A DNA stretch of 51,051 nucleotides from assembly GCA_964493525.1 (NCBI GenBank), contig CAZBOK010000001.1:1-51051 (forward strand), given 5' to 3'. Numbering within the stretch: the first letter of the stretch is position 1; the number at the start of each line of letters is the position of its first letter. This document shows positions 38,880 through 51,051 of this stretch, one piece after another. A program made the translations under genes and the position numbers. A model generated the notes under the pieces. It was given only the letters and a program-made list of their open reading frames with translations, made no database searches and had not been told where the DNA came from. This stretch comes from an uncultured Phycisphaeraceae bacterium (GTDB lineage Bacteria > Planctomycetota > B15-G4 > JADJEK01).

Positions 38880-41800
38880 TCATTGGCAGATGCGCAGCGC
38901 GAGCCCCGGGCTCGCCGAGTACCCCTGCGGCGCGGCCGGGTCGAAGACGATCAACTGAAGGTCCGCCTCCAGTCCGATCCACGCGGAGACGTTCGGGATC
39001 CCGAACGCGACGGTGACGGTGCCCGCTGCCGATGTCGGCAGCGCGAACGTCGTGAGCACCGGCGACGGATCGACGAGCAGCGTGAAACCGTGGACCTGGA
39101 TCGCGGCTCGTGACAGGCCGAGCAGCAGGTACCCGATCGAGTTCGGGTTCACGTGATCGAACGTGATCGTCTCCGTGGTGCCGAGCATCGGTGAACCGGA
39201 CCACGAGATCCCCGGGCGGCCGAGCACGCCCGCAGTCCCCGGCCCATAGAGCGCCGGCGGCGCGCAGTCGATCGCGGTGGAGTGGATGCGGAAGTCTGCC
39301 TCGAGGTCGCCGTTCCACGGGTTGCGCAGCCACGGCCCGAACGGCTGGAACGGCACCGTGACCGGCCGCGGTCGCACGCGTGCGCGCCAGTGATACTGAC
39401 CGGGGGCGAGACCGGTCGCTGTGGCCACGAGGACCGGCACCGCCGTCGTGTCCTTCCACGCGCTGATGCCCGACTGCACCGGCGTGGACGAGCCGAGTGG
39501 CGCGACTTCCCATTCGATCGCGGAGAACGTGCGGCCAGTCGGCGGCAATGACTCGACCTCGATCCGCAATCCGTCCGAATGCGTGCGCGACAGGTGAGCC
39601 ACGGCCGCGCTGTCATCGAGGCGATCCTGACGCGGCATCCGCCACTTGCCCGGCCGTCCATTCCCGAAGTATGCGTACACGTCGCCGCGCGCGTGACCGA
39701 GCGACGTCTCGGTGAGCGGCGCGCCGACCAGGATGTCGGCGGCACCGTCGCCGTTCACGTCGCCGGCACCGCTGAGCGCGCTTGCGTAGCGCGCTCCGGG
39801 GCCGCCGATCGAGGCGAATGCGGCCGTCGGATCGACGCCCGTCGGGCTCCCCAGGTGCTCCACCACGCGCCCCGCGTCGGCGGCGCCCGCATGGTCCCAC
39901 GCAGGCGCGCCGACCAGCAAGTCGGCGAAGCCGTCGCAGTTCACGTCGCCGGCCGTCGCCAACGCCGCCCCGAACGCACAGCCGGTCTGGGCGCCGTCGA
40001 GCACGACCGCGGGAGTCGTCGCTGGAGCACTGATCGCGCCGTGATACACGCTGACTTGCCCGCAATCGATCGCTGATTGGTCAGACTCCGGCGCGCCGAC
40101 CGCGACGTCGGCGAAGCCGTCGCCGTTCACGTCGCCAGCACCACACACCGCTGTGCCGCAGTGCGCGTCGGGCTGGCCGCCCACGACGGACCAGCACGGC
40201 ACCACCTCGGCGCCGAGCGAGTGTCCGCGATAAATCGTCGCGCGGCCCTCGTCGCTTGCGGCGCCGTCGAAGTTGGGCGCGCCGACGATGATGTCGGTGA
40301 ACCCGTCCCGATCGACGTCACCCGCGGTGTCGAGCGCTGCACCGAAGTTCGCGAGCGCTTGCTCGCCATCGATGACCCACAGCGGCGCCGTCGCGAGCCC
40401 GGAGACGCCACCGGGGAACAGGAATGCGCGCCCTTCCCCGACCTCGCCCGCGCGGAACGCCGGCGCGCCGACCAGCACGTCGGCGAAACCATCGCCGTTC
40501 ACGTCGCCGGCTCCGGCGACCGCGGCACCGAAGTGCGCACCGGCTTGCTGACCCTCCGCGAACCAACTCGCCGTGGGGTGAAGGAGGAGATTCGGATCGC
40601 CTCCCCGGAACAGGTAGGCGCGGCCCTCGGTCGGCTGTTCGCCGCTGAAAAACGGCGCGCCGATCACGGCGTCGCAGAATCCGTCCGCGTCGACGTCGCC
40701 GGCGTTCGCGACCGCGGAGCCAAACTCGTCGCCGGCCTCCTCGCCGTCGACGATCCAGGCCGGCCAGTCGTCCGGACCGTGCTCCGCGCCGGAGTAGACC
40801 AGCGCGCGGCCGCGATCGGTCTTCCCACCCGCGTCGAAACCCGGGCAGCCGATCAGCAGTTCGGAGCGTCCATTGCCGTCGAGGTCGCCGAGATTCGCCA
40901 CCGACGCGCCGACGTTCTCGCCGTCCTGCGTCAGGGGGAAGCTCTGCGATTGCACAGCCCACACTTTGAACTCGCTGGTCGGGTTCGGGCCACCGTAATA
41001 GGCGACCACGCGACCCTCTCCGGCCTCGCCGTTCGTGTAGCCGAATGCACCGACCAAGACGTCGGAGAAGCCGTCGCCGTTCACATCGCCGGCGCCCGCG
41101 ACCGAGTACCCGTGGTGCTCGTCCATCGCGCTGCCCTGCGTCTGCCACGAGGGCGCAGCGGGCCAAGGCCAGTCGCCGGGATAGAGCAACGCGCCGCCCT
41201 CGTCGTTTGAACCCAGATTGGGTGCGCCGATGATGAAATCGGCAAAGCCATCGCCATTGACATCGCCAGCTGCGGACATTGCTGCGGAATAGCGATCATC
41301 GACATTTGCGCCGATGGCCGACCAGATCGGAGCCGACGCGAGTGTCTCGAGGCGAGCGGAGCCCACGGACCCCTCGATCGGGATCCGGCCCATCAGGAGA
41401 TCCGGCCAACCGTCCCCGTTTGTGTCCCCGGCGGGAGCGATCGTGTAGCCGAAGACCCGCCTCTCCATTTGTTGATAGACCGTGCTTGGATAAAAGCCGA
41501 AGAAAGCGAACTTTCCAGGACCGGCACTGCTGCCAGCGAACAATTGAACAAAGCCCGCATCCATCGCCAAGGCGACATCGCCGTTCCCACCACCCGTGTA
41601 GAGGTCGGTGAGGGGCGAACTCACCATCACGTCGGAATATCCGTCGAGATTGGCATCCGCTGCGCTTGCGACCGAGAAGCCGAATTGTTCCCCGGCCTGA
41701 GATCCCGCAACGGTCCACACGGGCGCCGCAGCGGGCCCGCCGGGCGCGCCGAGGTAGACGTATGCGGCGCCGACGTCGAGCGCTTCGACGTCGGCCTCGT

Positions 41801-42965
41801 GTGGGTTGCCGGACGAAACCACGGCGACGTGATCGAACAGCGGCGCACCGATGATGATGTCGGAGCGGCCGTCGTCGTTCGTGTCACCGGCGGTCGCGAC
41901 GCAGGTTCCGAAGTGCGCACCGACTTGGTTGTTCTCGCCCGTCCAGACGGGCACGCTCGACATCGAGCCGCTGCCGAGGAACACGTACGCGCGACCTTCG
42001 TCGAGCTCGCCGTTGTCGGCGAACGGCGCGCCGACGATCACGTCGGAGAGGCCATCGCCGTCGACGTCACCGGCAGTGGAGACGGAGAAGCCGAAGCGCG
42101 CGCCGACCTGGTCGCTCTCCGCAATCCAGCTCGGCGCCGGCAGCAGACCGGTGGGGCTGCCGCGGAACACGTAGGCGCGACCTTCCCAGGACTCACCGTT
42201 GCTGAAATAGGGTGCGCCGACGATCACGTCGGAGAAGCCGTCGGCATCGACGTCGCCTGCGCCCGCGCTCGCCGCCCCGAAATGCGCGCCGATCTGGTCG
42301 CCTTCCGCCGACCACGCCGGCTTCGTTGCGAGCGGATCGACGAAGATCGGGTACCGCGCCGCGCGATCATCAACCTGGATCGTCAGCAGGCCCGCGCCGA
42401 GCACGAAGCGCACCGGAAGCGCGCGCCGGTCGGCGTCCCACGCGAGCAGGTGGTCGAACTGGATCGCGCAGTTACCGACCGCATCGCGGAACTCGACGGA
42501 CTCGCCACCCGCGCTCTCGACCGGCACGAGCGATCCGCCGACGTGCATGCGGAGATCGACGCCCGAGTCGTTCGACCGCGCCGGCCGCTCCTCGAGGACG
42601 AAGCCCTGCTCGAGGCCGCGCGCCGCGTTCTCGTACCACTCGACGACGCCGTCGCGCACGATCTCGAGGCGCGAACCGTTCGCCAAGACACGCACGTCCT
42701 TCGCCGGCTCGCCGTCGAGCGACAACGCAAGCGACCACGGCGCGACCGTGCGCGCACACGACTCGATGCGCACTCCGTCCGCGGAGAAGCGCGCGATGAA
42801 CGCGTGGGCGCCGTTTGCTGCGAAGAAGCCGGTGCCGCGTGCGTCGCGCTCGATCGCGTAGGCGGTGTCACGGCGCGCCGATTCTTGCGGCCAGGCCACG
42901 GGCGGCGTGACCAGAGCACTGGCGGCTGCAACGATGAACGAGGCACTCAGAATCTGCGGCGACAT
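38880..42965 (-). CDS. Secreted 1361-aa protein: N-terminal module + 14 FG-GAP repeats + shared C-terminal module
   Basis: RBS GGGGGAGG. Signal 'MSPQILSASFIVAAASALVTPPVAWPQ'. 14 copies of 'FG.....AGDVNGDGF.DV.VGAP'. Confidence 0.85.
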   Translation of the reverse strand: MSPQILSASFIVAAASALVTPPVAWPQESARRDTAYAIERDARGTGFFAANGAHAFIARFSADGVRIESCARTVAPWSLALSLDGEPAKDVRVLANGSRLEIVRDGVVEWYENAARGLEQGFVLEERPARSNDSGVDLRMHVGGSLVPVESAGGESVEFRDAVGNCAIQFDHLLAWDADRRALPVRFVLGAGLLTIQVDDRAARYPIFVDPLATKPAWSAEGDQIGAHFGAASAGAGDVDADGFSDVIVGAPYFSNGESWEGRAYVFRGSPTGLLPAPSWIAESDQVGARFGFSVSTAGDVDGDGLSDVIVGAPFADNGELDEGRAYVFLGSGSMSSVPVWTGENNQVGAHFGTCVATAGDTNDDGRSDIIIGAPLFDHVAVVSSGNPHEADVEALDVGAAYVYLGAPGGPAAAPVWTVAGSQAGEQFGFSVASAADANLDGYSDVMVSSPLTDLYTGGGNGDVALAMDAGFVQLFAGSSAGPGKFAFFGFYPSTVYQQMERRVFGYTIAPAGDTNGDGWPDLLMGRIPIEGSVGSARLETLASAPIWSAIGANVDDRYSAAMSAAGDVNGDGFADFIIGAPNLGSNDEGGALLYPGDWPWPAAPSWQTQGSAMDEHHGYSVAGAGDVNGDGFSDVLVGAFGYTNGEAGEGRVVAYYGGPNPTSEFKVWAVQSQSFPLTQDGENVGASVANLGDLDGNGRSELLIGCPGFDAGGKTDRGRALVYSGAEHGPDDWPAWIVDGEEAGDEFGSAVANAGDVDADGFCDAVIGAPFFSGEQPTEGRAYLFRGGDPNLLLHPTASWFAEGQQAGAHFGAAVAGAGDVNGDGFADVLVGAPAFRAGEVGEGRAFLFPGGVSGLATAPLWVIDGEQALANFGAALDTAGDVDRDGFTDIIVGAPNFDGAASDEGRATIYRGHSLGAEVVPCWSVVGGQPDAHCGTAVCGAGDVNGDGFADVAVGAPESDQSAIDCGQVSVYHGAISAPATTPAVVLDGAQTGCAFGAALATAGDVNCDGFADLLVGAPAWDHAGAADAGRVVEHLGSPTGVDPTAAFASIGGPGARYASALSGAGDVNGDGAADILVGAPLTETSLGHARGDVYAYFGNGRPGKWRMPRQDRLDDSAAVAHLSRTHSDGLRIEVESLPPTGRTFSAIEWEVAPLGSSTPVQSGISAWKDTTAVPVLVATATGLAPGQYHWRARVRPRPVTVPFQPFGPWLRNPWNGDLEADFRIHSTAIDCAPPALYGPGTAGVLGRPGISWSGSPMLGTTETITFDHVNPNSIGYLLLGLSRAAIQVHGFTLLVDPSPVLTTFALPTSAAGTVTVAFGIPNVSAWIGLEADLQLIVFDPAAPQGYSASPGLALRICQ
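39657..42317 (-). repeat. 14 tandem FG-GAP coding repeats (two predicted 7-blade propellers)
   Basis: The GD[VT][ND].DG motif counted 14 times in the translation. Confidence 0.75.
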
Positions 42966-43181
42966 GGAACGCCTCCCCCGAATCGATGGACCGAGCACAG
43001 GCTCCGAGAGTAGCAGCGCCGACGGATTGCGCAGGGGATGGCGGACGCGAGGGTGGTGATTCGATTGACGCGCGGCTCCGATCCCGGGTGCACGCATCGG
43101 GCGGCTGCTCGAGGGGAGGCGCCCTCCTCGACCGTGATCTCGTCCGGCGGCGGTCGTGCGAACGCGCGCACGGCGTCGAGG

Positions 43182-44216
43182 TCACTGCGCGAAAAAGGGG
43201 TTGTCGGCCAGCGGGCCGATGTCGTTGTTGATCCGCTCGACGAACTCCGGCTCGGTGATGAGCCGCGCGCGCAGGAACCGAAGGCGCGCGAGGAAGTCGG
43301 TGAACCCTTCCGCGGATCACCTGGACCGGGACTCAGAGTCGACGCCCCGCGGCGCCCGCACGTCGATCTTCCCCGGCAGACCCATGTGGAACATCTCGTG
43401 AGCGAGGAGCTTCGCCAGCTCGAGATGCGTGGCGTCCGTCTTCGCGAAGCCGATGAAGCAGCGCGGCACCTGCGTGCCGCACACGTTGTCCTCGCGAGGG
43501 CTGATCGCGACGATGGAGAATGCGTCGGAGTCGTCGTCGAACACGGCCCGCTGCTGGCGCACGATCGTTTCCGCCAACTCGAAGATGCGCGGCCGGCCGA
43601 TCTGGAACTGGCCCTGCACCGAGACGAGAACGGGTTTGCCGTCGATGTCGAACGTGTGGAGCGGCGCCGCCCCGCCGCCGAACGTGGCCGTCACGAGCCC
43701 GTCGTAGGAGGCGTCGACCTCGATGTGCCGCGGATCGAGCGCGAGCGACGAGTAGAGGCTCCAGCCGGAGGGAGCGTCCGCGAAGTCGATGGCGTAGTGA
43801 TCGATCTGCGCTGACGCGCCGACGCGCAGCAGCCATTGGCAGCCCGCCACGTGGAAGGAATCGGGCGCGACGTTCGGGCCGAACGAGACGTGACCGAACA
43901 GGCCGGGGTCGTACGCGAGCGTGTAGTCGAGGGAGATCTTGCCGTCGGGTGCGGGCGTGACGAGGCGCTCAGTGGGGGAGGCACCCTCGCGAACTGTGGT
44001 GCCGTTCAGACCTTCGAAGGTAGTGATGTGTTGCTCGAGGGGCAGGCCGCTGTAGAAGTCGACAGGGAGGGAGACGGTGAAGGCGTCTTGCGTGGGGCGT
44101 GTGAAGTCAAGCGCGACGTGGAGTTCGATGCGGTCGGCGATTGGGGTGGGGCGAAGCGTTTAGTGGAGCGAGGCCAGCGAGAGCGTCATCACGAGCGCGA
44201 AAACGGGAGTGCGCAT
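43182..44216 (-). pseudogene. Decayed, 3'-truncated paralogue of the M61 peptidase gene
   Basis: Colinear with 37660-38692 (94/100 nt identical for 37861-37960 versus 43386-43485). In-frame TAA at codon 19 (44160-44162; Tyr in the intact copy). In-frame TGA at 43317-43319 just after the HEMFH motif. Homology ends at about 43195, so the C-terminal third including the PDZ-like domain is absent. Confidence 0.8.
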
Positions 44217-44447
44217 CGAGGTCTCTTTCGCGAGCGGCATACGGAATACAGATCAACTTTTCCCGGTCACTACAGATGTTGGAACGCGACAACGGGGCGC
44301 AACGCATGGAGAAGAAAGTTCCCGATTCTCAATGCGTGTGGTGCCAAGCGGCAGCGTGATCGAATCGCACGAAGCAATTCGCTTCCGAATTCCTCAGCGC
44401 ACAGTTTAGAATGAAACAGACGCGACTAGACTGCCGGTGAGACACAC

Positions 44448-45527
44448 ATGGCGACGAACAGCCTTCCGATTGACAACCCCGGCACGAGCGCAACACTTGC
44501 ATATACACGCTCACGCGGCGCACTCTACATCGGGGACTCACTAGGCGCGATTACACGCAAACCACTCGTCGAATTCCGCGGCAAGGTTCAGCTCGTCTTT
44601 ACATCGCCACCATTTCCGCTTAATCGCAAGAAACGATACGGGAATCTCCATGGGGAAGAATATGTCGAGTGGCTCGCAGCCTATGCAGTGCCCCTCACCG
44701 AGTATCTGACCGCCAACGGGTCGATCGTGATCGAAGTGGGAAACGGATGGGATCCTGGCCAGCCCACCGTCTCAACTCTCGCCATCGAAGCACTCCTGGC
44801 GTTCAAGAAAAAAGCCCAACTACATCTATGTCAGGAATTCATCTGCTTCAATCCAGCGCGCCTGCCAAGCCCGGCCCAGTGGGTCACCATCGAGCGTTGC
44901 AGAGTAAAGGACGCCTTCACGCGAGTGTGGTGGATGTCTCCGACGCCGCGCCCCAAAGCGGATAACGGCCGTATCCTCACCGAATACAGTGATGCGATGC
45001 GGCGACTGCTAGCTCGAGGTACATACAACCCCGGAGCGCGCCCATCTGAGCATCACATTGGGGAGACTTCGTTTCTGGCGAACAATGGGGGGGCGATTCC
45101 ACCCAATGTGTTAATTCCTTCGGCCACCGCGCTGGCGCAGGAAATCCTAGCAGCGGAGAGCCAGATCACAGATGTCCTTACGATCGCAAATACGTCGATG
45201 GCCGATCCATATCAGCGCCACTGCCGAGAGAATCACATTCCTCAACATCCTGCGCGCATGCCAATGAAGCTTGTGCAGTTCTTCATCGACTTCCTGACTG
45301 ACCCTGGAGACGTCATACTCGATCCATTCGCGGGAACAAACTCCACAGGATTCGTCGCCGAACTCCGTGAGCGTCGATGGGTGGGTATTGAGGCCGATGA
45401 ACACTACGCCCGCACATCTGAAGAGCGTTTTAAGCATTACGAACTGACGGGCGTTAACCCTCTCTTTGGCGAATCGCCTCGACCTGCCTCGCAAAGCGGG
45501 CTCGGAGCACGTCAAGAAACGTCTTGA
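44448..45527 (+). CDS. Beta-class exocyclic-amino DNA methyltransferase (N4-C or N6-A), M.PvuII-like
   Basis: Motif IV 'LVFTSPPFPL' near the N-terminus and motif I 'VILDPFAGTNSTG' near the C-terminus (IV-TRD-I order). Other blocks: 'FNPARLPSPAQWV','RVKDAFTRVWW','NGGAIPPNVL','HPARMPMKLVQFFI'. SPPF is the variant I recall for M.PvuII (m4C). Confidence 0.85.
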   Translation: MATNSLPIDNPGTSATLAYTRSRGALYIGDSLGAITRKPLVEFRGKVQLVFTSPPFPLNRKKRYGNLHGEEYVEWLAAYAVPLTEYLTANGSIVIEVGNGWDPGQPTVSTLAIEALLAFKKKAQLHLCQEFICFNPARLPSPAQWVTIERCRVKDAFTRVWWMSPTPRPKADNGRILTEYSDAMRRLLARGTYNPGARPSEHHIGETSFLANNGGAIPPNVLIPSATALAQEILAAESQITDVLTIANTSMADPYQRHCRENHIPQHPARMPMKLVQFFIDFLTDPGDVILDPFAGTNSTGFVAELRERRWVGIEADEHYARTSEERFKHYELTGVNPLFGESPRPASQSGLGARQETS

Positions 45528-46143
45528 GCTGCTCGATTTCTGTAAGCGGAATCGGGCGCGAGCCGCCGTGTACTCCACGGGTGATGTCCGTGCGGTGGGT
45601 CCGCCCACACCATTCCTTCGCGTGACCTATTGCGGTTTCAATCGCACGCACGCGGTCATTTAGCTCGTTTGCGGTGTTCTTTGAGAGGCCGAGAAACGCA
45701 GCGGCTCCGAGCCAGGTCCGCGGCTCGTCGCGATCATCTAGCCACGCTCGAAACGGCGGACTCTCAACGAACGGCGCGATTGCAACGTAGATCGGTCCAG
45801 GCGACCGGGAAGAAGGACCTTCAATTCCTCGGCTACCGTGAATCGCGGCTGCTTCCGCCGCCCCTAGGTCTGTCAATCGATAATAGTTTGGCTTGGTCTT
45901 CTCAACAAATCGCCTCCGCACCGGATTGTCTTTCTTGGACTGGCCCATGATCTCCATCATGACTCGCTTGTGATCCGGGTGCGTTGTTTCGAACCCACGC
46001 AATCCAAATCGATTGTTGTCGCGACGCCATGCGGCGACGGTCAACTCCCATTCCGTGAATTCACGCTTACCGGCAGCCGCCAAGTCCGCAGCGGCTAGAA
46101 GGATCTCTTGCGTCGCAGTTCGCCTGTTCGTTGGCGAACTCAC
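45454..46143 (-). CDS. Hypothetical 229-aa protein, translationally coupled to the GHKL-ATPase gene
   Basis: The GTG start (46143-46141) overlaps the upstream TGA (46142-46140). The 3' end overlaps the convergent MTase gene by 74 bp. No motif recognised. Confidence 0.6.
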   Translation of the reverse strand: MSSPTNRRTATQEILLAAADLAAAGKREFTEWELTVAAWRRDNNRFGLRGFETTHPDHKRVMMEIMGQSKKDNPVRRRFVEKTKPNYYRLTDLGAAEAAAIHGSRGIEGPSSRSPGPIYVAIAPFVESPPFRAWLDDRDEPRTWLGAAAFLGLSKNTANELNDRVRAIETAIGHAKEWCGRTHRTDITRGVHGGSRPIPLTEIEQLKTFLDVLRARFARQVEAIRQREG

Positions 46144-48512
46144 GTCGCGCGATCTCCGGCATCGGCGAGCACGTCCGCGATGTTGTAGGCATCCTCAATG
46201 AACGGCGCACATTCGGTTTCCGCCGTGGCGAATCGCTCGCGAAACTGAAGTTCAGTCAACGGCGCCTCACGCGCCTGTTCGAATACCCACAGTCGCTTGA
46301 GAATCTCGAAACACTTTATTGCGACGAAGTGGTAGTAGGTTTCCGTCGCGATGCCGGCCATGCCCTTGCGTCCACCTCTTCCGCGACGCGCCTGAATCGA
46401 TTCCCGGCTATCCGGATTGATAAATATCACGTTCTCGAACGCCGGGTCAAAATCATTGATAGTCGGCAAGTGCTCAGATGGCATGATCGTGCGCTGTTCC
46501 AACGGATAGTGATCCATGCCCGGCGCGGACGTGCCGCAGAGCAAGATGATCGGGATCTCTCCTCCGGCATTACCACCAGTGCCTCGCCGTGGCAGAACTC
46601 GCTCCGATCCCACGCGCGCCAATGCCGATGCCGTATCGATCTGGTTGCTTCCCCAACGAACGCGAATGGTCGCGGTGCCTTCGCATGAACCGGATACGTA
46701 GAGACCATTACGACTGATCCGCCCCATGCCGATCTCATCGATGGAAGCGTCGTGTAGCAAGTCGTCTCTGACTCCCCCCGCCGTCATGTATTCGATCTTG
46801 ATGGCCAGGTGTTCGCCCTGCAGTAGTTGTCGGTCAGGGATGCCGGAGATGCTGGCACCCGTACAGCACACCAACTCGATCGTCACGCGATTCGACTTGA
46901 CGCTCCCATCTTCGCTTTCGAAGGACACGACCGTCTTGCCGACGGATAGGCCGGTCACTTGGTTCGAGGCGTCAACAGTAGCGTGGTTAGCCGGATCCAA
47001 CTTCGCAACAAGTCTCGGCGATGCGACGGGTCGGAGCTCTCCTGCGGCGGTCTGCTCAAACGCCTTCACTCGCAGTGGCACGGTTGCACCAACCGCGATC
47101 GCGATGCTTGCAGATCTCCCCTCAAGCTCTATGACGTTAACGAGATCGCCCCTCGGAGGAGATAGTGGGCGTGACTTCTTCGTGCCGTCCGTCCCGTCTC
47201 CTTGTTGCCCCTCGCCGGCACCCCGATCGCCGCGATCGCGCTCCTTCAGAAACCTGCGCATCAGATCGCGGAGCTTCTGAAGGCTTTCATTCACTTTGTC
47301 GCGATCCTCGGCCCGATGTTCCTTGGCCGTGGCCTGTTGGATTCTGTCCGCGAGTGTCTTGACCTGGGTGGCGGTCCAATCCTGGAGTCCGCGAATCAGT
47401 GGAGTATCGTTGAGTGACTTCCGATCCGCGCCAGTGACGTGCTCACCGTCAATAGCGGGAACTCGAAGCTCACCGAACACGAATCCTGAAGACGCGCCTG
47501 GACTCAGGTCCGCAACGCTCCAGAGGCCAACGACGTTCCTGTTGTTTCGGACCCGAATGACGTGGAGAGGTCGCATGTCCTCGGTACGTAATGACCGAGC
47601 ACTGGTACGTAGAGTGAGTACGCGGCTGCGGGCGTCGCCAGTACCCGTACGCACGGGGTCGCCGGTCTGAGGGTCGATTACTTCGTCGGGCACCGGAACC
47701 ACCAGTGTCTCAAGGAACCCAGGGAAAGGCTCAGGATATTCGACCTTCGCTGGCGAACCACCGATGATCTGTCCATCGACAATGAACCACACCGCGCAAG
47801 ACTCAAGGGTGAGCGCAGCTTGCGGATGCGTCTCAACGGACCGACGAATCTCCGCAGCTAGTCGGCGCACCGTTTCTTCCCTCGCGCGCGCCCAATCCTT
47901 CACAGAGTTTACCTGCGCGACCGTGTAGGTCTGTCGTGCATCGAACACTCTCTGTGCTTGTTCTGGCAAGTGATCGAATCGAAGCCCGATGTCGGCAAGC
48001 GCCTTGTCGAATTGCTTCCGAGGCACATCGACGCGCTGATCCTCGACAGCCTTTCCACCCTCGATCGCAATCCCAGGCTTAAATCGCGTGCGTTCGTTAT
48101 CGTTCTCATAACCCATCCGCGTTCGACGATGGTCATGGCACGATTCGAAGGAAGAATCCGAAGTCGAACCGAGCACCATGAAAGCCTTGCCGCCGTTGCC
48201 ATGCCCACCTTCGATGTCGGCAGCCTTGTCGCGAGCATTGGCAGTTGGATCCGACCATGTTTCCCATCTCATGAATTGGTCTGCAGTGGCTCCTGCGAAG
48301 TCAATAACAGCAATCGCCCTGTCGCCCGTGTTGACGGCGACAACTATCGTGCGCTGGTCCGGCTCCGTGATGCCGAGACGGCTGTATTGGTCCTTCGCAT
48401 TCTTGATCAGCTCAGGAAGTCCGTCCCTGACGCCCTGAAATCGGGACAAGAGCTGCATGAGCGTGTGGGGAACGTCGATCGGAATCCGTTCCCGGAACTG
48501 ATACCTTGCCAT
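46140..48512 (-). CDS. GHKL (Bergerat-fold) ATPase fused to two Big_2-like Ig domains and an unknown C-terminal domain
   Basis: N-box 'ELIKNAKDQ', degenerate G1 'IDFAGAT', G2 'GGHGNGGKAF'. Ig-like 'VGATVPLRVKA...ATVDASNQVTGLSVGKTVVSFESEDGSVKSNRVTIEL' and 'GEHLAIKIEY...ISRNGLYVSGSCEGTATIRV'. No signal peptide. ATG 48512 has GGGGA 6 nt upstream; ATG 48518 is an alternative. Confidence 0.7.
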   Translation of the reverse strand: MARYQFRERIPIDVPHTLMQLLSRFQGVRDGLPELIKNAKDQYSRLGITEPDQRTIVVAVNTGDRAIAVIDFAGATADQFMRWETWSDPTANARDKAADIEGGHGNGGKAFMVLGSTSDSSFESCHDHRRTRMGYENDNERTRFKPGIAIEGGKAVEDQRVDVPRKQFDKALADIGLRFDHLPEQAQRVFDARQTYTVAQVNSVKDWARAREETVRRLAAEIRRSVETHPQAALTLESCAVWFIVDGQIIGGSPAKVEYPEPFPGFLETLVVPVPDEVIDPQTGDPVRTGTGDARSRVLTLRTSARSLRTEDMRPLHVIRVRNNRNVVGLWSVADLSPGASSGFVFGELRVPAIDGEHVTGADRKSLNDTPLIRGLQDWTATQVKTLADRIQQATAKEHRAEDRDKVNESLQKLRDLMRRFLKERDRGDRGAGEGQQGDGTDGTKKSRPLSPPRGDLVNVIELEGRSASIAIAVGATVPLRVKAFEQTAAGELRPVASPRLVAKLDPANHATVDASNQVTGLSVGKTVVSFESEDGSVKSNRVTIELVCCTGASISGIPDRQLLQGEHLAIKIEYMTAGGVRDDLLHDASIDEIGMGRISRNGLYVSGSCEGTATIRVRWGSNQIDTASALARVGSERVLPRRGTGGNAGGEIPIILLCGTSAPGMDHYPLEQRTIMPSEHLPTINDFDPAFENVIFINPDSRESIQARRGRGGRKGMAGIATETYYHFVAIKCFEILKRLWVFEQAREAPLTELQFRERFATAETECAPFIEDAYNIADVLADAGDRAT

Positions 48513-49187
48513 ACACATTCCCCAAGCAGCAACTGCCGAGTAGCGCGAGGCAACGATTCCAACGACAACTAGCGAGCGCTTACGACTGCACCCGAGCGAT
48601 GAGGCGTGCTGTCAACTCCGCTGGATAACGACCGGATCTTCGTGATCCGATGCCCGGAAGTCAATCGGTCGGCGCTCAGTCGCCTCGTCGGTCGCTTTAC
48701 TGGCGCGCGGATGTATTCGGGACACTGTGGATTGGAATTGGAGCAAGAGTGTTCAACACCTCGCACCGAAGCCGGGCACGCTCGTCAGCGCCTCGCTAGT
48801 TTCGGGTGTTGTCGGCAGGGCAATCGACACCGACCCGTCCAAGTACTCGCCCTTCATGCGCGTCTTTGAGAGCCTTGTGCGATCACAAGCGACTGTCGAA
48901 CTGGAGCTTCCACTGTTGAGGCGGTCGCGGGAAGCCGTGGGATCCCTTGAACGCAGGTCACGCCTCTTCGTTGCCCGGGCTCGACATGCAGGACTCGTTC
49001 GACCCGCAATCCCTCGTGGCCACGAGAGCGATCGTCGAGGAGAAACTGCAGAAGAGGGGGCATGGTCCCACACAGGGCTCGGGTGACTCGGAGCGTTCAA
49101 AGCTCCCCGCGACCACGCTCCAGAGTACATGCACCTTTCAGGGATCGCGATACCGGGAGTCGCCCTCAGTTGCGAGGGCAGTGCAGC

Positions 49188-51051
49188 TCACACGAACGAT
49201 GACGGGATCGACCGCAACAAGTCCGATGCGGGCTGACCATGCCGCTTTGCTGCTCTCAACCCCACCACCGCCTCCATCACCGCATACTGCTCCCCGTCAA
49301 ACCCCGCGACAAACCTCCCACCTCTCACATCCCCGCGCATCTCCATCCTTCTCAGCACCCGCAGCACATCCCGCCACGGCACCTTCGAGAACGCCCAGCG
49401 CTCCTTGCTCGCCGTCATCCGGAACACGACGCCCGTCCTTCGGAGCAGCACGCGCGCGACGAACTCGGCGTCGGTCATCGCCAATTGAAGCGGCGCGCTC
49501 TCCGCTGACTCGACTCCCCGCAGCCGACTGAACCTTCCGGTCCCGCCCGAGCCGCGCACTCCCTCGAACAAGGCCCGCCTCCGCCGGCTCGGCGGAACGA
49601 TCAATCCGCGCACGGCGGCAAACGAGTCCGCCGTCGCCAGGCCGTGCGCGATCAACGACTGCAGCGCGGCCTCCAATTGGTTCGGAAGCAGCTTCGCCCT
49701 GCGCGCGATCTCCGCGGGGAACAGCGCGCCGTGCTGGTCGAGCAAGCCGAGCACTTCCTTCGCGTCGCCGCTCAACGCCTCGATCGTCTCCGGCGTCGTC
49801 GGCTCGGCGATCGACAGCCACTGATCCAAGTCGTCGCGCTTCACGAGCGTCATCGGCATCGCGCGCATCGATGCGTTGCCGGCGCCGAAGAATCGTCCCC
49901 ACGTGACCTCGCCGCCGAGCGTCAACTGGTCGAGCCACTCCCTCCGATACCCCTGCACCCGCGCGGGCAGGATCGTGCGCTCCCACTCGGGCGCGGGCGC
50001 TTCCCAGCCGGCGAGCTGCTCGATGACCGTCCGCACGCCGTGCGGGCCTTCGAGCCGGTGGCCTTCCGCCGCGTGCTGCCACTGCGCGAGGAACTGCTCG
50101 AACACCGCGGCGCTGACCGGCTCGATCTCCTTGCGCAATCGTTCGAGCATCCGGCGCCGGATGCGGATCAGCAGGCGTCGCTCGCACCAGCACTCGCGCC
50201 CGCGCCAGCGCGCGCGGAGCACGTGGCCTTCGGCATCGAGCTCCTTCAGCGTCAACAACTCGGCGTGCATCGAATCGCCGGGCTCGCTCGCGAAGACGGG
50301 CCCGAGCGCTTCGAGCCGGCCGCGCGTTACCGTCTTCTCGTCGCGGCTCGCTTCCGCCGCATACCAGCGCTCGCCGTCGCGCACGACGCGGCCGGCGGCG
50401 GCGAGCGCGTCGATCCACGGACGCCACGCGGTCGCCTCGCTTTCCGTCACGAACCCCATCCACGTCAGTGCCTCATGCACCTCCTCGGCATTCCTCGGAT
50501 CCGGCCACGCCTCGTCCTTCACCGCCATCACCGCCGCGTCGTCGAGTTCTCCCGCCTCCGCGTCCGACTCCGGCAGCACGCCGGCCGTGATCACCGCGCG
50601 CGTCCTGCGCTCCTCGAGCGGAGCGTCATCGAGGAACGCGTACGGCCGCGCGTTCACCACCTCGTGCGCGAGCGGCGACGGCTTCGGCGTGTCGACGAAG
50701 CGGGTTTCGATCGCGCCCGACTGCATCCCCGCGACGACCTCGAGCATCCCGTCGGCGTCCATCGATTCGTTCAGGCAGTCTTCGATCGTCTGCCGCACGA
50801 GCGGGTGCTCCATCGGCACCGGCAGGTCGGGAGTCGTCAGCGTCTCGGGGCACGCGTTCGCCTGCGGGAAGGCGGCGGTGAGGAAGTCGTTCGCGCGCAT
50901 CCGCTGCAGGATCAAAGGCACGCGCGCGCCGTTGTTCATGCGGTCCATCAACAGTGAACGGCCGACGTTCCAGCGCCAGCGGTTGCCGAAGATCGGCGTC
51001 TGCAGCACCGCCTGGATCAGCACGTCCTTCGCGCTGTTCGGATGCAGCAGC
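49188..51051 (-). CDS. lhr: Lhr-like large ATP-dependent helicase, C-terminal part (gene runs off the window)
   Basis: The frame stays open to the window edge. 'PIFGNRWRWNVGRSLL','LILQRMRANDFL','PLAHEVVNARPYAFLDDAPLEERRTRAV' are typical of the Lhr DEAD/H-associated and C-terminal domains. Confidence 0.7.
   Translation of the reverse strand, partial: LLHPNSAKDVLIQAVLQTPIFGNRWRWNVGRSLLMDRMNNGARVPLILQRMRANDFLTAAFPQANACPETLTTPDLPVPMEHPLVRQTIEDCLNESMDADGMLEVVAGMQSGAIETRFVDTPKPSPLAHEVVNARPYAFLDDAPLEERRTRAVITAGVLPESDAEAGELDDAAVMAVKDEAWPDPRNAEEVHEALTWMGFVTESEATAWRPWIDALAAAGRVVRDGERWYAAEASRDEKTVTRGRLEALGPVFASEPGDSMHAELLTLKELDAEGHVLRARWRGRECWCERRLLIRIRRRMLERLRKEIEPVSAAVFEQFLAQWQHAAEGHRLEGPHGVRTVIEQLAGWEAPAPEWERTILPARVQGYRREWLDQLTLGGEVTWGRFFGAGNASMRAMPMTLVKRDDLDQWLSIAEPTTPETIEALSGDAKEVLGLLDQHGALFPAEIARRAKLLPNQLEAALQSLIAHGLATADSFAAVRGLIVPPSRRRRALFEGVRGSGGTGRFSRLRGVESAESAPLQLAMTDAEFVARVLLRRTGVVFRMTASKERWAFSKVPWRDVLRVLRRMEMRGDVRGGRFVAGFDGEQYAVMEAVVGLRAAKRHGQPASDLLRSIPSSFV

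Follow-up and report, generated by a model that had tools for sequence, protein, structure and literature searches.

The window, as we call the whole 51,051-nt stretch of DNA analysed here from an uncultured Phycisphaeraceae bacterium, contains a reverse-strand gene for a 790-aa ATPase, a smaller reverse-strand gene for a basic partner protein and a forward-strand DNA methyltransferase gene, all within an island of low GC content. With ATPase residues numbered as in the public protein P0001, and with the basis of each call in brackets, the features are:

44000..49000, no strand: low-GC island with the three-gene cassette (composition profile; blastn)
44448..45527, forward strand: beta-class DNA methyltransferase, M.PvuII homologue (Pfam, PADLOC, PDB 1boo, motifs)
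45454..46143, reverse strand: partner gene, 229 aa, basic (open reading frame, overlap, synteny, weak PF25213 match)
46140..48512, reverse strand: coding sequence of the GHKL-S5-Ig-Ig-CTD protein, 790 aa (open reading frame, Shine-Dalgarno spacing, identity to P0001)
46140-46142, reverse strand: ATPase stop codon
46143..46556, reverse strand: C-terminal domain (CTD), residues 653-790, two short strands and three long helices (own model; lowest dN)
46593..46868, reverse strand: Big_2-type Ig domain 2, residues 549-640 (basis as for Ig domain 1)
46869..47147, reverse strand: Big_2-type Ig domain 1, residues 456-548 (Foldseek match to LigA 8gyr; all-beta model; profile hits)
47148..47228, reverse strand: disordered linker rich in Gly, Pro and charged residues, residues 429-455 (pLDDT <50 at 428-450)
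47229..47402, reverse strand: two long helices, residues 371-428, slightly basic (+4 here) (secondary structure of the model; net charge)
47403..47822, reverse strand: S5-type transducer, residues 231-370, with invariant R320, N323 and N326 (Foldseek span; invariant columns)
47823..48512, reverse strand: GHKL (Bergerat-fold) ATPase domain, residues 1-230 (Foldseek to Hsp90/MORC/SMCHD1; invariant residues)

The longest open reading frame listed for the ATPase runs over 46140..48518 on the reverse strand (792 aa, from an alternative ATG at 48518); a second ATG, at 48512, has a GGGGA Shine-Dalgarno sequence 6 nt upstream and gives a product identical to P0001. Because of this Shine-Dalgarno sequence and the 790-aa length of P0001, 46140-48512 is the likely coding sequence, which bears out the coordinates of the first-pass annotation, made from the letters alone. 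From the N-terminus, the protein consists of a GHKL domain, an S5-type transducer, two long helices, a disordered linker, two Big_2-type Ig domains and the CTD, and its full-length AlphaFold2 model has a mean pLDDT of 82. Neither a transmembrane helix nor a signal-like N-terminus was found (highest 19-residue Kyte-Doolittle mean 1.42), as the first reading had also held, and motifs, model and Foldseek together confirm its central proposal of a cytoplasmic GHKL ATPase with two Big_2-type Ig domains. The protein has a net charge of −9, with acidic Ig and C-terminal domains, and dN/dS indicates purifying selection on every domain, strongest in the CTD. It went unrecognised in searches of Pfam, NCBIfam, PADLOC and PDB sequences, and the architecture, earlier suspected to be undescribed, is absent from Pfam, NCBIfam and PADLOC and appears in no paper that we found.

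All four Bergerat motifs are present and in order: motif I is E34xxxN38xxD41, motif II a degenerate D71FAG74A (DFAGA), motif III G103GHG-N-G-G-K109 and motif IV FT197xV. Across 40 family sequences E34, N38, D41, D71, G74, G105, N106, G107, G108 and K109 are invariant, and across 16 superfamily sequences at 20-43% identity so are E34, K37, N38, D71, G74, G105, G107, G108, K109 and T197. The ATP-binding motifs are thus intact at the level of sequence, and the N-box, degenerate G1 and G2 boxes quoted in the first-pass annotation are among them; most of the key motif residues are invariant. GHKL ATPases typically have a catalytic Glu in motif I. Structurally, Foldseek matched the model to the GHKL domain and transducer of GRP94/Hsp90/TRAP1, MORC2, MORC3 and SMCHD1 (430-460 columns, E 4e-9 to 1e-7, probability 1.0), so that a structure search finds the proposed Bergerat fold at the N-terminus; the alignments also cover the middle domain of Hsp90 and the transducer of MORC/SMCHD1. 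No GHKL protein came up in profile searches of PDB sequences, and neither the ATPase nor 40 family members gave an above-threshold Pfam HATPase_c or HATPase_c_3 match, distant relatives scoring 24.3, 19.3 and 17.9 bits against HATPase_c_3 (cut-off 25). The S5 domain directly follows GHKL, with R320 invariant and R325 nearly so. GhXhhpXXRhl is the S5-domain motif of the MORC family proper (PMC2292703), and the corresponding region here, LHVIRVRNNRNVV, has no clear match to it in a comparison by eye only.

The segment after the transducer, described at first as a coiled-coil-like linker, has two long helices in the model (371-395 and 401-428) and then becomes disordered, and residues 429-455 are the least conserved segment of the protein. 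Foldseek aligns residues 456-640 with the tandem Big_2 domains of Leptospira LigA (8gyr; E 1.4e-8, 195 columns) and also with Nup210, and this region resembles Big_2 repeats in general. The two segments proposed to be of Big_2 type are thus Ig folds by their all-beta model and the LigA match, though Pfam Big_2 (PF02368) scores only 12.2 bits on the ATPase (E 0.18; gathering score 22.8), with the match in Ig domain 1 and not in Ig domain 2; the relative P0300 passes the same profile with 46.4 bits. In a 4000-aa protein (P0333) the ATPase family profile matches 22 stretches and Pfam Big_2 gives E 8.7e-44; this protein combines a STAND NTPase with Big_2 repeats, so the earlier premise that Big_2 domains are confined to surface proteins was too strong. 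Both Ig domains carry a net negative charge (family means −3.9 and −2.3) and so are poor candidates for DNA binding. Of the folded domains, Ig domain 1 is conserved least (35% mean identity to the window protein), and dN/dS of ~0.09-0.155 in the pair, highest in Ig domain 1 (0.14-0.155), indicates purifying selection. Relatives of ~600-700 aa lack the Ig domains and retain the ATPase and C-terminal domains; in some a disordered linker takes their place. At least one examined locus of an Ig-less relative (L034) still has the partner and a methyltransferase.

The first reading could not place the CTD, which it took to be ~170 aa long; the domain is indeed without a significant structural match in the PDB (best E 2.4) or BFVD (best E 0.094), but is smaller, at ~140 aa. 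Modelled alone it reaches pLDDT 87 and pTM 0.77, is mostly helical and, in the comparison that the first-pass annotation had proposed, matches no nuclease fold. It has the lowest dN and dN/dS of the ATPase domains. Within the close family C659, N699, S702, E704, K733, E765 and C768 are invariant polar residues; across the superfamily the conserved core is P..LL(C/S)G ... WIN, and no conserved catalytic set was found there.

The first reading overlooked the operon, in which the ATPase lies beside a coupled 229-aa partner and an M.PvuII-like methyltransferase. The GTG start of the partner overlaps the ATPase stop codon by 4 nt (GTGA), and the two genes are translationally coupled; they adjoin in 28 of ~31 informative loci, including those with members at ~25% identity. 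The partner has a net charge of +8 and is predicted from sequence to have a winged-helix-like N-terminal half and a helical C-terminal half; PF25213 is matched weakly by 7 of 30 members (best E 0.004), the call otherwise resting on sequence pattern. A PDHKR motif is invariant in close-family partners, the superfamily consensus shrinks to W, FG, G, YPD and hydrophobic positions, and a conserved wing tyrosine, Tyr88, is Phe in some relatives. Sequence libraries, the CTD structure and conservation revealed neither a nuclease domain nor a conserved catalytic set in the ATPase or the partner.

The methyltransferase gene is convergent with the partner gene, overlapping its 3' end by 74 nt. Its product matches Pfam N6_N4_Mtase (8.7e-28), PADLOC MTase_II (2e-77) and M.PvuII (PDB 1boo, E 5e-67), with invariant TSPPF and DPFxGS, and from these sequence features is probably N4-cytosine specific. 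GC content is 57-60% in 44000..49000 against ~70% in the flanks, and blastn similarity to two other loci (L010 and L011) is limited to exactly the three genes; these make up a low-GC cassette of ~4 kb that is transferred as a whole. At other loci the neighbours include integrases, primases, toxin-antitoxin and Abi genes and a conjugative plasmid. The PvuII site CAGCTG occurs twice in the window against 9.0 expected, a depletion that is not specific once 17 loci are pooled.

The ATPase family has ~1,000 representatives at 50% identity in bacteria and DPANN archaea, and cassette hosts include Planctomycetota, Acidobacteriota, Alphaproteobacteria, Chloroflexota, Armatimonadota and DPANN archaea. 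A DNA methyltransferase was present at every examined locus with an intact ATPase gene and sufficient flank. Among close-family loci, counted where the ATPase gene and flank were intact, it is an orthologous PvuII-like enzyme, adjacent or within ~4 kb, except at two DPANN archaeal loci that have a permuted N6_N4 enzyme in its place. Elsewhere we found a permuted N6_N4 enzyme (L022, L033 and L037), a C5 enzyme (L034) and a D12 Dam-like enzyme (L032), and the ATPase-partner pair is thus linked to four classes of DNA methyltransferase. In one member the ATPase is fused to MTaX1, a methylase-associated domain that may take part in the discrimination of modified DNA (PMC10853773).

GHKL+S5 paraMORC ATPases were predicted as restriction-modification components in 2008 (Iyer, Abhiman and Aravind, PMC2292703), and the operon with partner and methyltransferase places the window ATPase among them. 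Compared with paraMORC1-5 by their published description, it shares an N-terminal GHKL domain with intact ATP motifs, an S5 transducer, family-specific C-terminal extensions, a sporadic, laterally transferred distribution and genomic linkage to DNA methylases (PMC2292703). It differs in its tandem Big_2 domains and fixed winged-helix-like partner, in having no Pfam HATPase_c_3 match and no visible MORC-specific S5 motif, and in a cassette without a superfamily II helicase or recognisable endonuclease, neither of which Pfam or PADLOC detected in relatives. The Vibrio cholerae protein VcSduA (Shedu type I-D/paraMORC3) likewise has a GHKL ATPase, required for defence, with a clamp-like middle domain, and shares the motif I Glu, which VcSduA needs for defence, and a predicted dimer (PMC12137116). 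Unlike the window cassette, VcSduA consists of one polypeptide that includes a DUF4263 PD-(D/E)xK nuclease, and it has no methyltransferase (PMC12137116); Pfam and PADLOC gave no DUF4263 match in the window ATPase, and the CTD fold is unrelated.

Eukaryotic MORC2/MORC3 and SMCHD1 modules, ATP-dependent dimerising DNA clamps tied to epigenetic marks, are among the best structural matches at only 11-13% identity, whereas the CW, chromo-like and SMC-hinge domains are missing here and the C-terminal parts differ. Motif III, in the form GxxGNGxK, is similar to that of MORCs. MutL, too, is a GHKL+S5 ATPase, with a C-terminal dimerisation domain as proposed for the window protein; in methyl-directed mismatch repair it works with MutH and links a sensor bound to DNA with processing of the unmethylated strand. 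The window cassette, by contrast, lacks MutS-like and MutH-like proteins and MutL endonuclease motifs, and is mobile and in a defence-island context. The window methyltransferase is a full-length M.PvuII homologue with the SPPF motif typical of N4-cytosine enzymes, but R.PvuII and C.PvuII are absent and the ATPase and partner stand in their place. By the criteria for Type II restriction-modification, then, a stand-alone methyltransferase is present, and for a cognate Mg2+-dependent endonuclease no nuclease family, fold or catalytic set was detected. BREX and other methylation-based systems in which cleavage of DNA has not been observed resemble the model proposed here, in that self DNA is labelled by a methyltransferase and foreign DNA is blocked by ATPases with no demonstrated nuclease; the three-gene cassette is far smaller, and the BREX marker families PglZ, BrxC and BrxL were not found among called genes of the loci examined. 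Topoisomerase VI B is likewise a cytoplasmic GHKL-transducer protein with a possible Ig fold (that of Methanosarcina mazei carries a C-terminal Ig-like domain) and pairs with a winged-helix-containing subunit. Unlike topoisomerase VI, the window partner lacks Toprim and its wing Tyr88 is not constant, and topoisomerase VI-B was not among the best 50 structural matches of the ATPase model.

Functionally, we posit, with a probability of roughly 0.6, that the ATPase is the large subunit of a three-gene mobile cassette of restriction-modification type, in which it acts with the partner on unmarked DNA; the defence role suggested in the first-pass annotation is plausible. The M.PvuII-like methyltransferase would mark host DNA, probably as N4-methylcytosine, leaving the ATPase and partner as the module directed at unmarked DNA, a paraMORC-like dimeric clamp driven by ATP. 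On the model of MutL, Hsp90 and MORC, the CTD would hold two ATPase chains together, ATP binding would dimerise the GHKL heads and close a ring around DNA, the basic partner would supply DNA binding and read methylation state, and the acidic Ig pair would be a rigid spacer or protein-docking arm that sets ring size. Since no nuclease was found, the clamp may work by holding unmethylated DNA so that it is not replicated or expressed, or it may pass such DNA on to a nuclease that escapes these searches. Tentatively, and as a bolder version that we hold to be doubtful, the cassette could be a nuclease-free minimal restriction system, in which a MORC-like, ATP-driven ring is loaded by the winged-helix partner, entraps unmethylated DNA topologically and silences or stalls it, the Ig pair setting ring size and the CTD serving as dimer gate.

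The rival in which a conventional nucleolytic restriction system contains a hidden nuclease, with the GHKL ATPase only regulating or translocating as in Shedu type I-D or MutL-MutH, seems unlikely to us but deserves weight. Type II enzymes often escape profile searches, and a ~230-aa gene convergent with a Type II methyltransferase is, in size and position, what a Type II endonuclease gene classically looks like. The invariant polar residues and low dN and dN/dS of the CTD, and the invariant PDHKR of the partner, would suit an active site; yet the CTD polar residues are lost in distant relatives whose examined loci keep partner and methyltransferase, the consensus of both proteins is reduced to the few positions given above, and the mostly helical CTD matches no nuclease fold. 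Other paraMORCs do carry or neighbour nucleases (PMC2292703, PMC12137116), but a sequence-specific nuclease would not be expected to be conserved across changes of methyltransferase class.

Much less probable is the earlier suggestion that the Ig domains are a sensor for invader proteins or DNA, or that the gene derives from a phage tail or decoration protein by domestication. Phage and surface proteins commonly carry Big_2 domains, Ig domain 1 is the most variable folded domain and the cassette occurs on 6 IMG/VR contigs; those contigs carry it whole, as prophages often carry restriction-modification systems, and nothing speaks for a phage structural origin, with no match in 50,697 phage genome records. 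The Ig domains are unlikely to be a key recognition surface because they are acidic, under purifying selection (dN/dS far below 1) and dispensable in the superfamily; they are probably spacers, not sensors. Most improbable of all, to our mind, is a non-defence role, either as a GHKL kinase with a winged-helix substrate (CapK/CapS-like) or as an Hsp90-like chaperone regulating the neighbouring methyltransferase. GHKL kinases paired with winged-helix repressors do regulate immune operons (PMC13373217), and paraMORC-related, two-component-like elements have been suggested (PMC8011034), but the structural matches here are S5-transducer ATPases (Hsp90, MORC, SMCHD1) and not kinases, no STAS, DHp or receiver domain was found, and the motif I catalytic Glu is invariant. 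Moreover, retention of a 790-aa ATPase through swaps of methyltransferase class fits a restriction partner better than a regulator.

The paraMORC concept has thus been known since 2008, and it is the window ATPase family that is unannotated in Pfam, NCBIfam and PADLOC; in the literature we found no experimental tests of GHKL+S5 restriction-modification ATPases beyond the nuclease-fused paraMORC3/Shedu branch. Because a cultured isolate of Ensifer adhaerens carries one copy of the cassette on a plasmid (NZ_CP118613), the system is directly testable. The family pairs a MORC-like ATPase with a small putative DNA-binding partner and interchangeable methyltransferases, with no visible nuclease, and, if the cassette restricts DNA, it would either couple the reading of methylation to an ATP-driven clamp in a new way or contain a nuclease of new fold. 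Both possibilities are relevant to the origin of MORC-type epigenetic silencers and, were the nuclease-free ring true, the family would be a prokaryotic counterpart, and possibly an ancestor, of eukaryotic MORC-mediated epigenetic silencing.

The ATPase is encoded by the single long open reading frame in its part of the window, within a 5-kb island of 57–60% GC surrounded by DNA of ~70% GC. Its stop codon is overlapped by the start codon of the gene of a second protein, hereafter the partner, and a methyltransferase gene converges on the pair; we refer to the three genes as the cassette.

Features of the cassette and flanking host genes in the window
38880-43097, minus strand: FG-GAP repeat protein, 1405 aa (flanking host gene)
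43317-43850, minus strand: 177-aa ORF without a Pfam match, containing the HExxH-like motif HEMFH (flanking host gene)
44448-45527, plus strand: methyltransferase, convergent with the partner ORF and overlapping it by 74 nt
45454-46143, minus strand: partner ORF, 229 aa, GTG start overlapping the ATPase stop codon (GTGA)
46140-48518, minus strand: ATPase ORF, 792 aa
49188-51023, minus strand: C-terminal part of an Lhr-type helicase, with DEAD_assoc and Lhr winged-helix domains (flanking host gene)

Because a second ATG at 48512 has a GGGGA Shine-Dalgarno sequence 6 nt before it and yields a 790-aa product equal to the public protein P0001, the span proposed in the first-pass annotation, 46140-48512, is the probable coding sequence; the residue numbering of P0001 is used throughout. 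Pfam returned nothing for this protein but a Big_2 match below threshold (E 0.18), NCBIfam, PADLOC and PDB sequences gave no match, and neither a 40-member family profile nor a superfamily N-terminal profile retrieved anything useful from sequence libraries, PDB sequences included. A word-indexed search found 172 homologues, all labelled hypothetical and none (0/172) with a Pfam domain, and HATPase_c_3 matched slightly below threshold in three relatives (P0341, P0364, P0374); the family is real and conserved, and is without prior annotation. Its alignment holds E34, N38, D41, D71, G74, G105, N106, G107, G108 and K109 invariant, and with relatives of 20–32% identity added the invariant set is G31, E34, K37, N38, Y43, D71, G74, W86, G105, G107, G108, K109 and T197, so that Bergerat motifs I (ExxxN), II (DxxG), III (GxGGK) and IV (FTxV) all lie among invariant columns, in canonical order.

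Structurally, an AlphaFold2 model built from the family alignment (mean pLDDT 82) was matched by Foldseek over residues 1 to ~430 to GRP94, Hsp90, TRAP1, MORC2, MORC3 and SMCHD1 in the PDB, across 430–460 columns, with E-values of 4e-9 to 1e-7 and probability 1.0. As modelled, this region is a GHKL domain followed by an S5-type transducer, and the N-terminal GHKL ATPase recognized at first pass is upheld by both the invariant motifs and these matches. What had been described as a coiled-coil-like linker is predicted to be a pair of long helices with a disordered stretch after them, and hydropathy agrees that there is no transmembrane segment. Everything that the first-pass annotation had observed in the protein was thus borne out by structure matches, conservation and hydropathy.

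The middle of the ATPase resembles the tandem Big_2 domains of Leptospira LigA (Foldseek against the PDB, E 1.4e-8) and also Nup210; one relative, P0300, passes the Pfam Big_2 cut-off with 46 bits, and the ATPase family profile hits 22 stretches of P0333, itself scored as Big_2 by Pfam. The two Big_2-type Ig domains are confirmed by structure, and the sequence evidence, which comes by way of relatives, agrees. Both carry a net negative charge (family means −3.9 and −2.3), and Ig1 is the least conserved of the folded domains. Pairwise dN/dS, a rough measure here with dS saturated, was 0.09–0.155 for the Ig domains versus 0.03–0.09 for the GHKL and C-terminal domains; by these estimates the Ig domains are under purifying selection, and diversifying selection at the domain level is without support. 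Relatives of ~745–790 aa retain the Ig region; in those of ~590–705 aa only the ATPase module and C-terminal domain are matched, with a Gly/Pro-rich or disordered linker at the Ig position in P0341 and P0320, and the Ig domains are dispensable among relatives. Because they are acidic, variable in Ig1, under purifying selection and dispensable, and because the partner is basic versus an acidic ATPase, we think that the two Ig domains, placed between the helices and the C-terminal domain, act as a rigid spacer or docking arm and are not the primary DNA reader. The Ig architecture highlighted at first pass is correct, but of secondary rather than main interest. The first-pass premise that Big_2 domains are typical of surface proteins and not of intracellular ATPases is too strong, as such repeats extend beyond surface proteins: P0333 (4000 aa) joins a novel STAND NTPase domain and TPRs to more than 20 Big_2/Rib-type repeats, and would be a cytoplasmic-type immune NTPase bearing ‘surface’ Ig repeats. 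The B subunit of Methanosarcina topoisomerase VI likewise ends with an Ig-like domain.

Genomically, we scanned synteny with profiles of the ATPase and partner and the sequence of the methyltransferase, covering 31 loci from metagenomes, species genomes and an Ensifer plasmid, plus 13 further loci. Wherever the ATPase gene was intact and its flank present, the partner gene directly followed it, usually with an orthologue of the window methyltransferase (E 1e-63 to 1e-204) next and convergent; the methyltransferase lay ~4 kb upstream in an alphaproteobacterial genome and in Ensifer adhaerens plasmid NZ_CP118613. On that plasmid, from strain CTYH.Ch1, the methyltransferase gene spans 54211-55464 and the rest of the cassette 59223-62548. 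At the nucleotide level the window resembles its closest relatives, loci L010 and L011, from the ATPase start codon to just inside the methyltransferase gene; the likeness is confined to the three genes, which therefore constitute the mobile unit. Elsewhere the cassette neighbours integrases, D5 and Prim-Pol primases, and toxin-antitoxin and AbiE genes, and it also occurs on a conjugative plasmid. Searches located it at 21 loci among 185,579 species genomes and at 6 among 2.9 million viral contigs, with no locus in 50,697 phage records, which makes it rare; its hosts are scattered over Planctomycetota, Acidobacteriota, Alphaproteobacteria, Chloroflexota, Armatimonadota, an Exiguobacterium bin and DPANN archaea. 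At the island boundaries we found neither convincing flanking repeats nor a convincing tRNA gene, promoter or terminator. The ~500 nt of low-GC DNA before the ATPase gene (48519-49000), with no convincing gene and no likeness to relatives' flanks, may be left over from the element that brought the cassette in. Two ATPase copies look inactivated from their reading frames: that of L029 (872-3219) is frameshifted, as is its methyltransferase, and that of L026 (6941-8671) is cut off after about residue 506.

The methyltransferase matches Pfam N6_N4_Mtase and the PADLOC Type II model (2e-77), and has an invariant TSPPF motif IV with a C-terminal DPFxGS motif I, the beta-class order. SPPF or SPPY is a signature of N4-cytosine enzymes, and M.PvuII, itself an N4-cytosine enzyme, is a full-length homologue (PDB 1boo, E 5e-67). 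The mark is predicted to be N4-methylcytosine, possibly in CAGCTG, the PvuII site. Of all 6-bp palindromes in the host part of the window (positions 1-43900 plus 49150-51051), this site shows the strongest depletion (2 observed, 9.0 expected), and the cassette has none; when 17 loci were pooled, its depletion was no greater than that of other palindromes.

An exhaustive profile search extended the ATPase superfamily to 989 representatives (E ≤ 1e-3). In distant branches the partner still adjoins the ATPase gene (L033, E 3e-33; L036, L037, L042 and L043), lying upstream of it in L034 (E 1e-10), and the methyltransferase belongs to other classes: permuted N6_N4 (L022, L033, L037), C5 (L034) and D12 Dam-like (L032). 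A constant ATPase-partner pair with an exchanged methyltransferase is what a restriction-modification-type system should show for its non-methylase half. Several loci carry further genes. In L032 the ATPase (P0241, 1265-5058) has a Pfam MTaX1 domain fused at its N-terminus and is preceded by the Dam-like enzyme in place of the PvuII-like one; within its MTaX1 stretch, a D...ECK pattern may represent a restriction-endonuclease-like motif. MTaX1 is a methylase-associated domain possibly involved in discrimination of modified DNA (PMC10853773). A clade ~40% identical to P0001 has a ~70–75-aa gene directly upstream of the ATPase gene (L004 7709-7987, L007 7727-8017, L031 7722-7946 and others; consensus R.NKA..AI..IGNLSN...Y), found also in L032 and the IMG/VR loci L039–L041; it matches no Pfam family except for one weak DUF4145 hit, was not detected in the window's clade and is absent from window 48519-49187. 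Genes without Pfam or PADLOC matches, a 457-aa one between partner and methyltransferase in L037 (9338-10711) and one after the partner in L036 (4800-5762; 321-aa product cut by the contig end), are candidate effectors of an archaeal or distant branch. In L034 (3443-5330), whose ATPase lacks the Ig domains, a small Mrr_N protein is encoded directly upstream of the partner gene, and a CAP12/PCTIR-type TIR gene is next door.

The behaviour of MutL, Hsp90 and MORC proteins is established, and it underlies the mechanism we propose beside the domain anatomy, intact ATP motifs, partner-gene coupling, methyltransferase linkage and cassette mobility established here. By analogy with these proteins (PMC2292703; PMC12137116), two ATPase chains would be joined by their C-terminal domains, ATP would close a ring at the GHKL heads, the partner would bind DNA and sense a missing methyl mark, and the ring would then act on the unmarked DNA. 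We give such a restriction-modification-type clamp module as a whole a probability of roughly 0.6. The last step may be cleavage by an unrecognized or host nuclease, or unmethylated DNA may be trapped in the ring uncut. Entrapment without cleavage has been argued for BREX; for this cassette we judge the nuclease-free version unlikely, at about the same odds as a nuclease hidden within the pair.

A nuclease hidden within the ATPase-partner pair itself is the rival explanation. Family libraries found no nuclease in the ATPase, the partner or the relatives' accessory genes. Modelled alone, the last 140 residues of the ATPase (pLDDT 87, pTM 0.77) found no significant structural counterpart in either the PDB or BFVD, leaving the C-terminal domain as unplaceable as at first pass and its assignment as a nuclease without structural backing. 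The best, non-significant BFVD matches of this model (mbdd68c5b8951) were uncharacterised giant-virus proteins near the ATPase family in length, from Hokovirus (702 aa) and Yasminevirus (759 aa), with E 0.094 and 0.72 and TM 0.45 and 0.43, too weak for use. Over 40 superfamily members the domain consensus is P..LL(C/S)G ... WIN plus hydrophobic positions only, with no shared acidic, His or Lys set, and over 12 diverse partners it is W, FG, G and YPD plus hydrophobic positions only; a conserved nuclease within the pair is not supported. Because the close family has invariant polar residues in both proteins, a family-specific active site could exist there, and overall we judge the hidden nuclease unlikely. 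The partner has a net charge of +8, of which +6 falls in its N-terminal half, versus −9 for the ATPase overall. Its only PDB profile match, IsdE, was spurious; hhalign found it unrelated to the L034 Mrr_N protein and to the MTaX1 region of P0241; and a Spo11/Top6A-like catalytic tyrosine was rejected, Tyr88 being Phe in two relatives and a Toprim domain being absent.

Among the papers covered by a literature search on GHKL proteins with Ig-like domains, methyltransferases or defence, none described a GHKL ATPase with Big_2 domains or such a cassette. Conceptually, P0001 comes closest to the paraMORC group of Iyer, Abhiman and Aravind (PMC2292703), with which it shares the GHKL and S5 domains and a methylase neighbourhood, but from which it differs in having neither helicase nor nuclease association, nor any Pfam GHKL match. 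Lacking a DUF4263 domain, it does not belong to Shedu/paraMORC3; a CapK/CapS-type kinase-repressor pair is ruled out by architecture; and, as no endonuclease was found, the cassette falls outside the classical Type II systems. P0001 is the MORC-like ATPase subunit of a compact cassette that is based on methylation and probably serves defence. The absent nuclease and the interchangeable methyltransferases are what make the cassette interesting.
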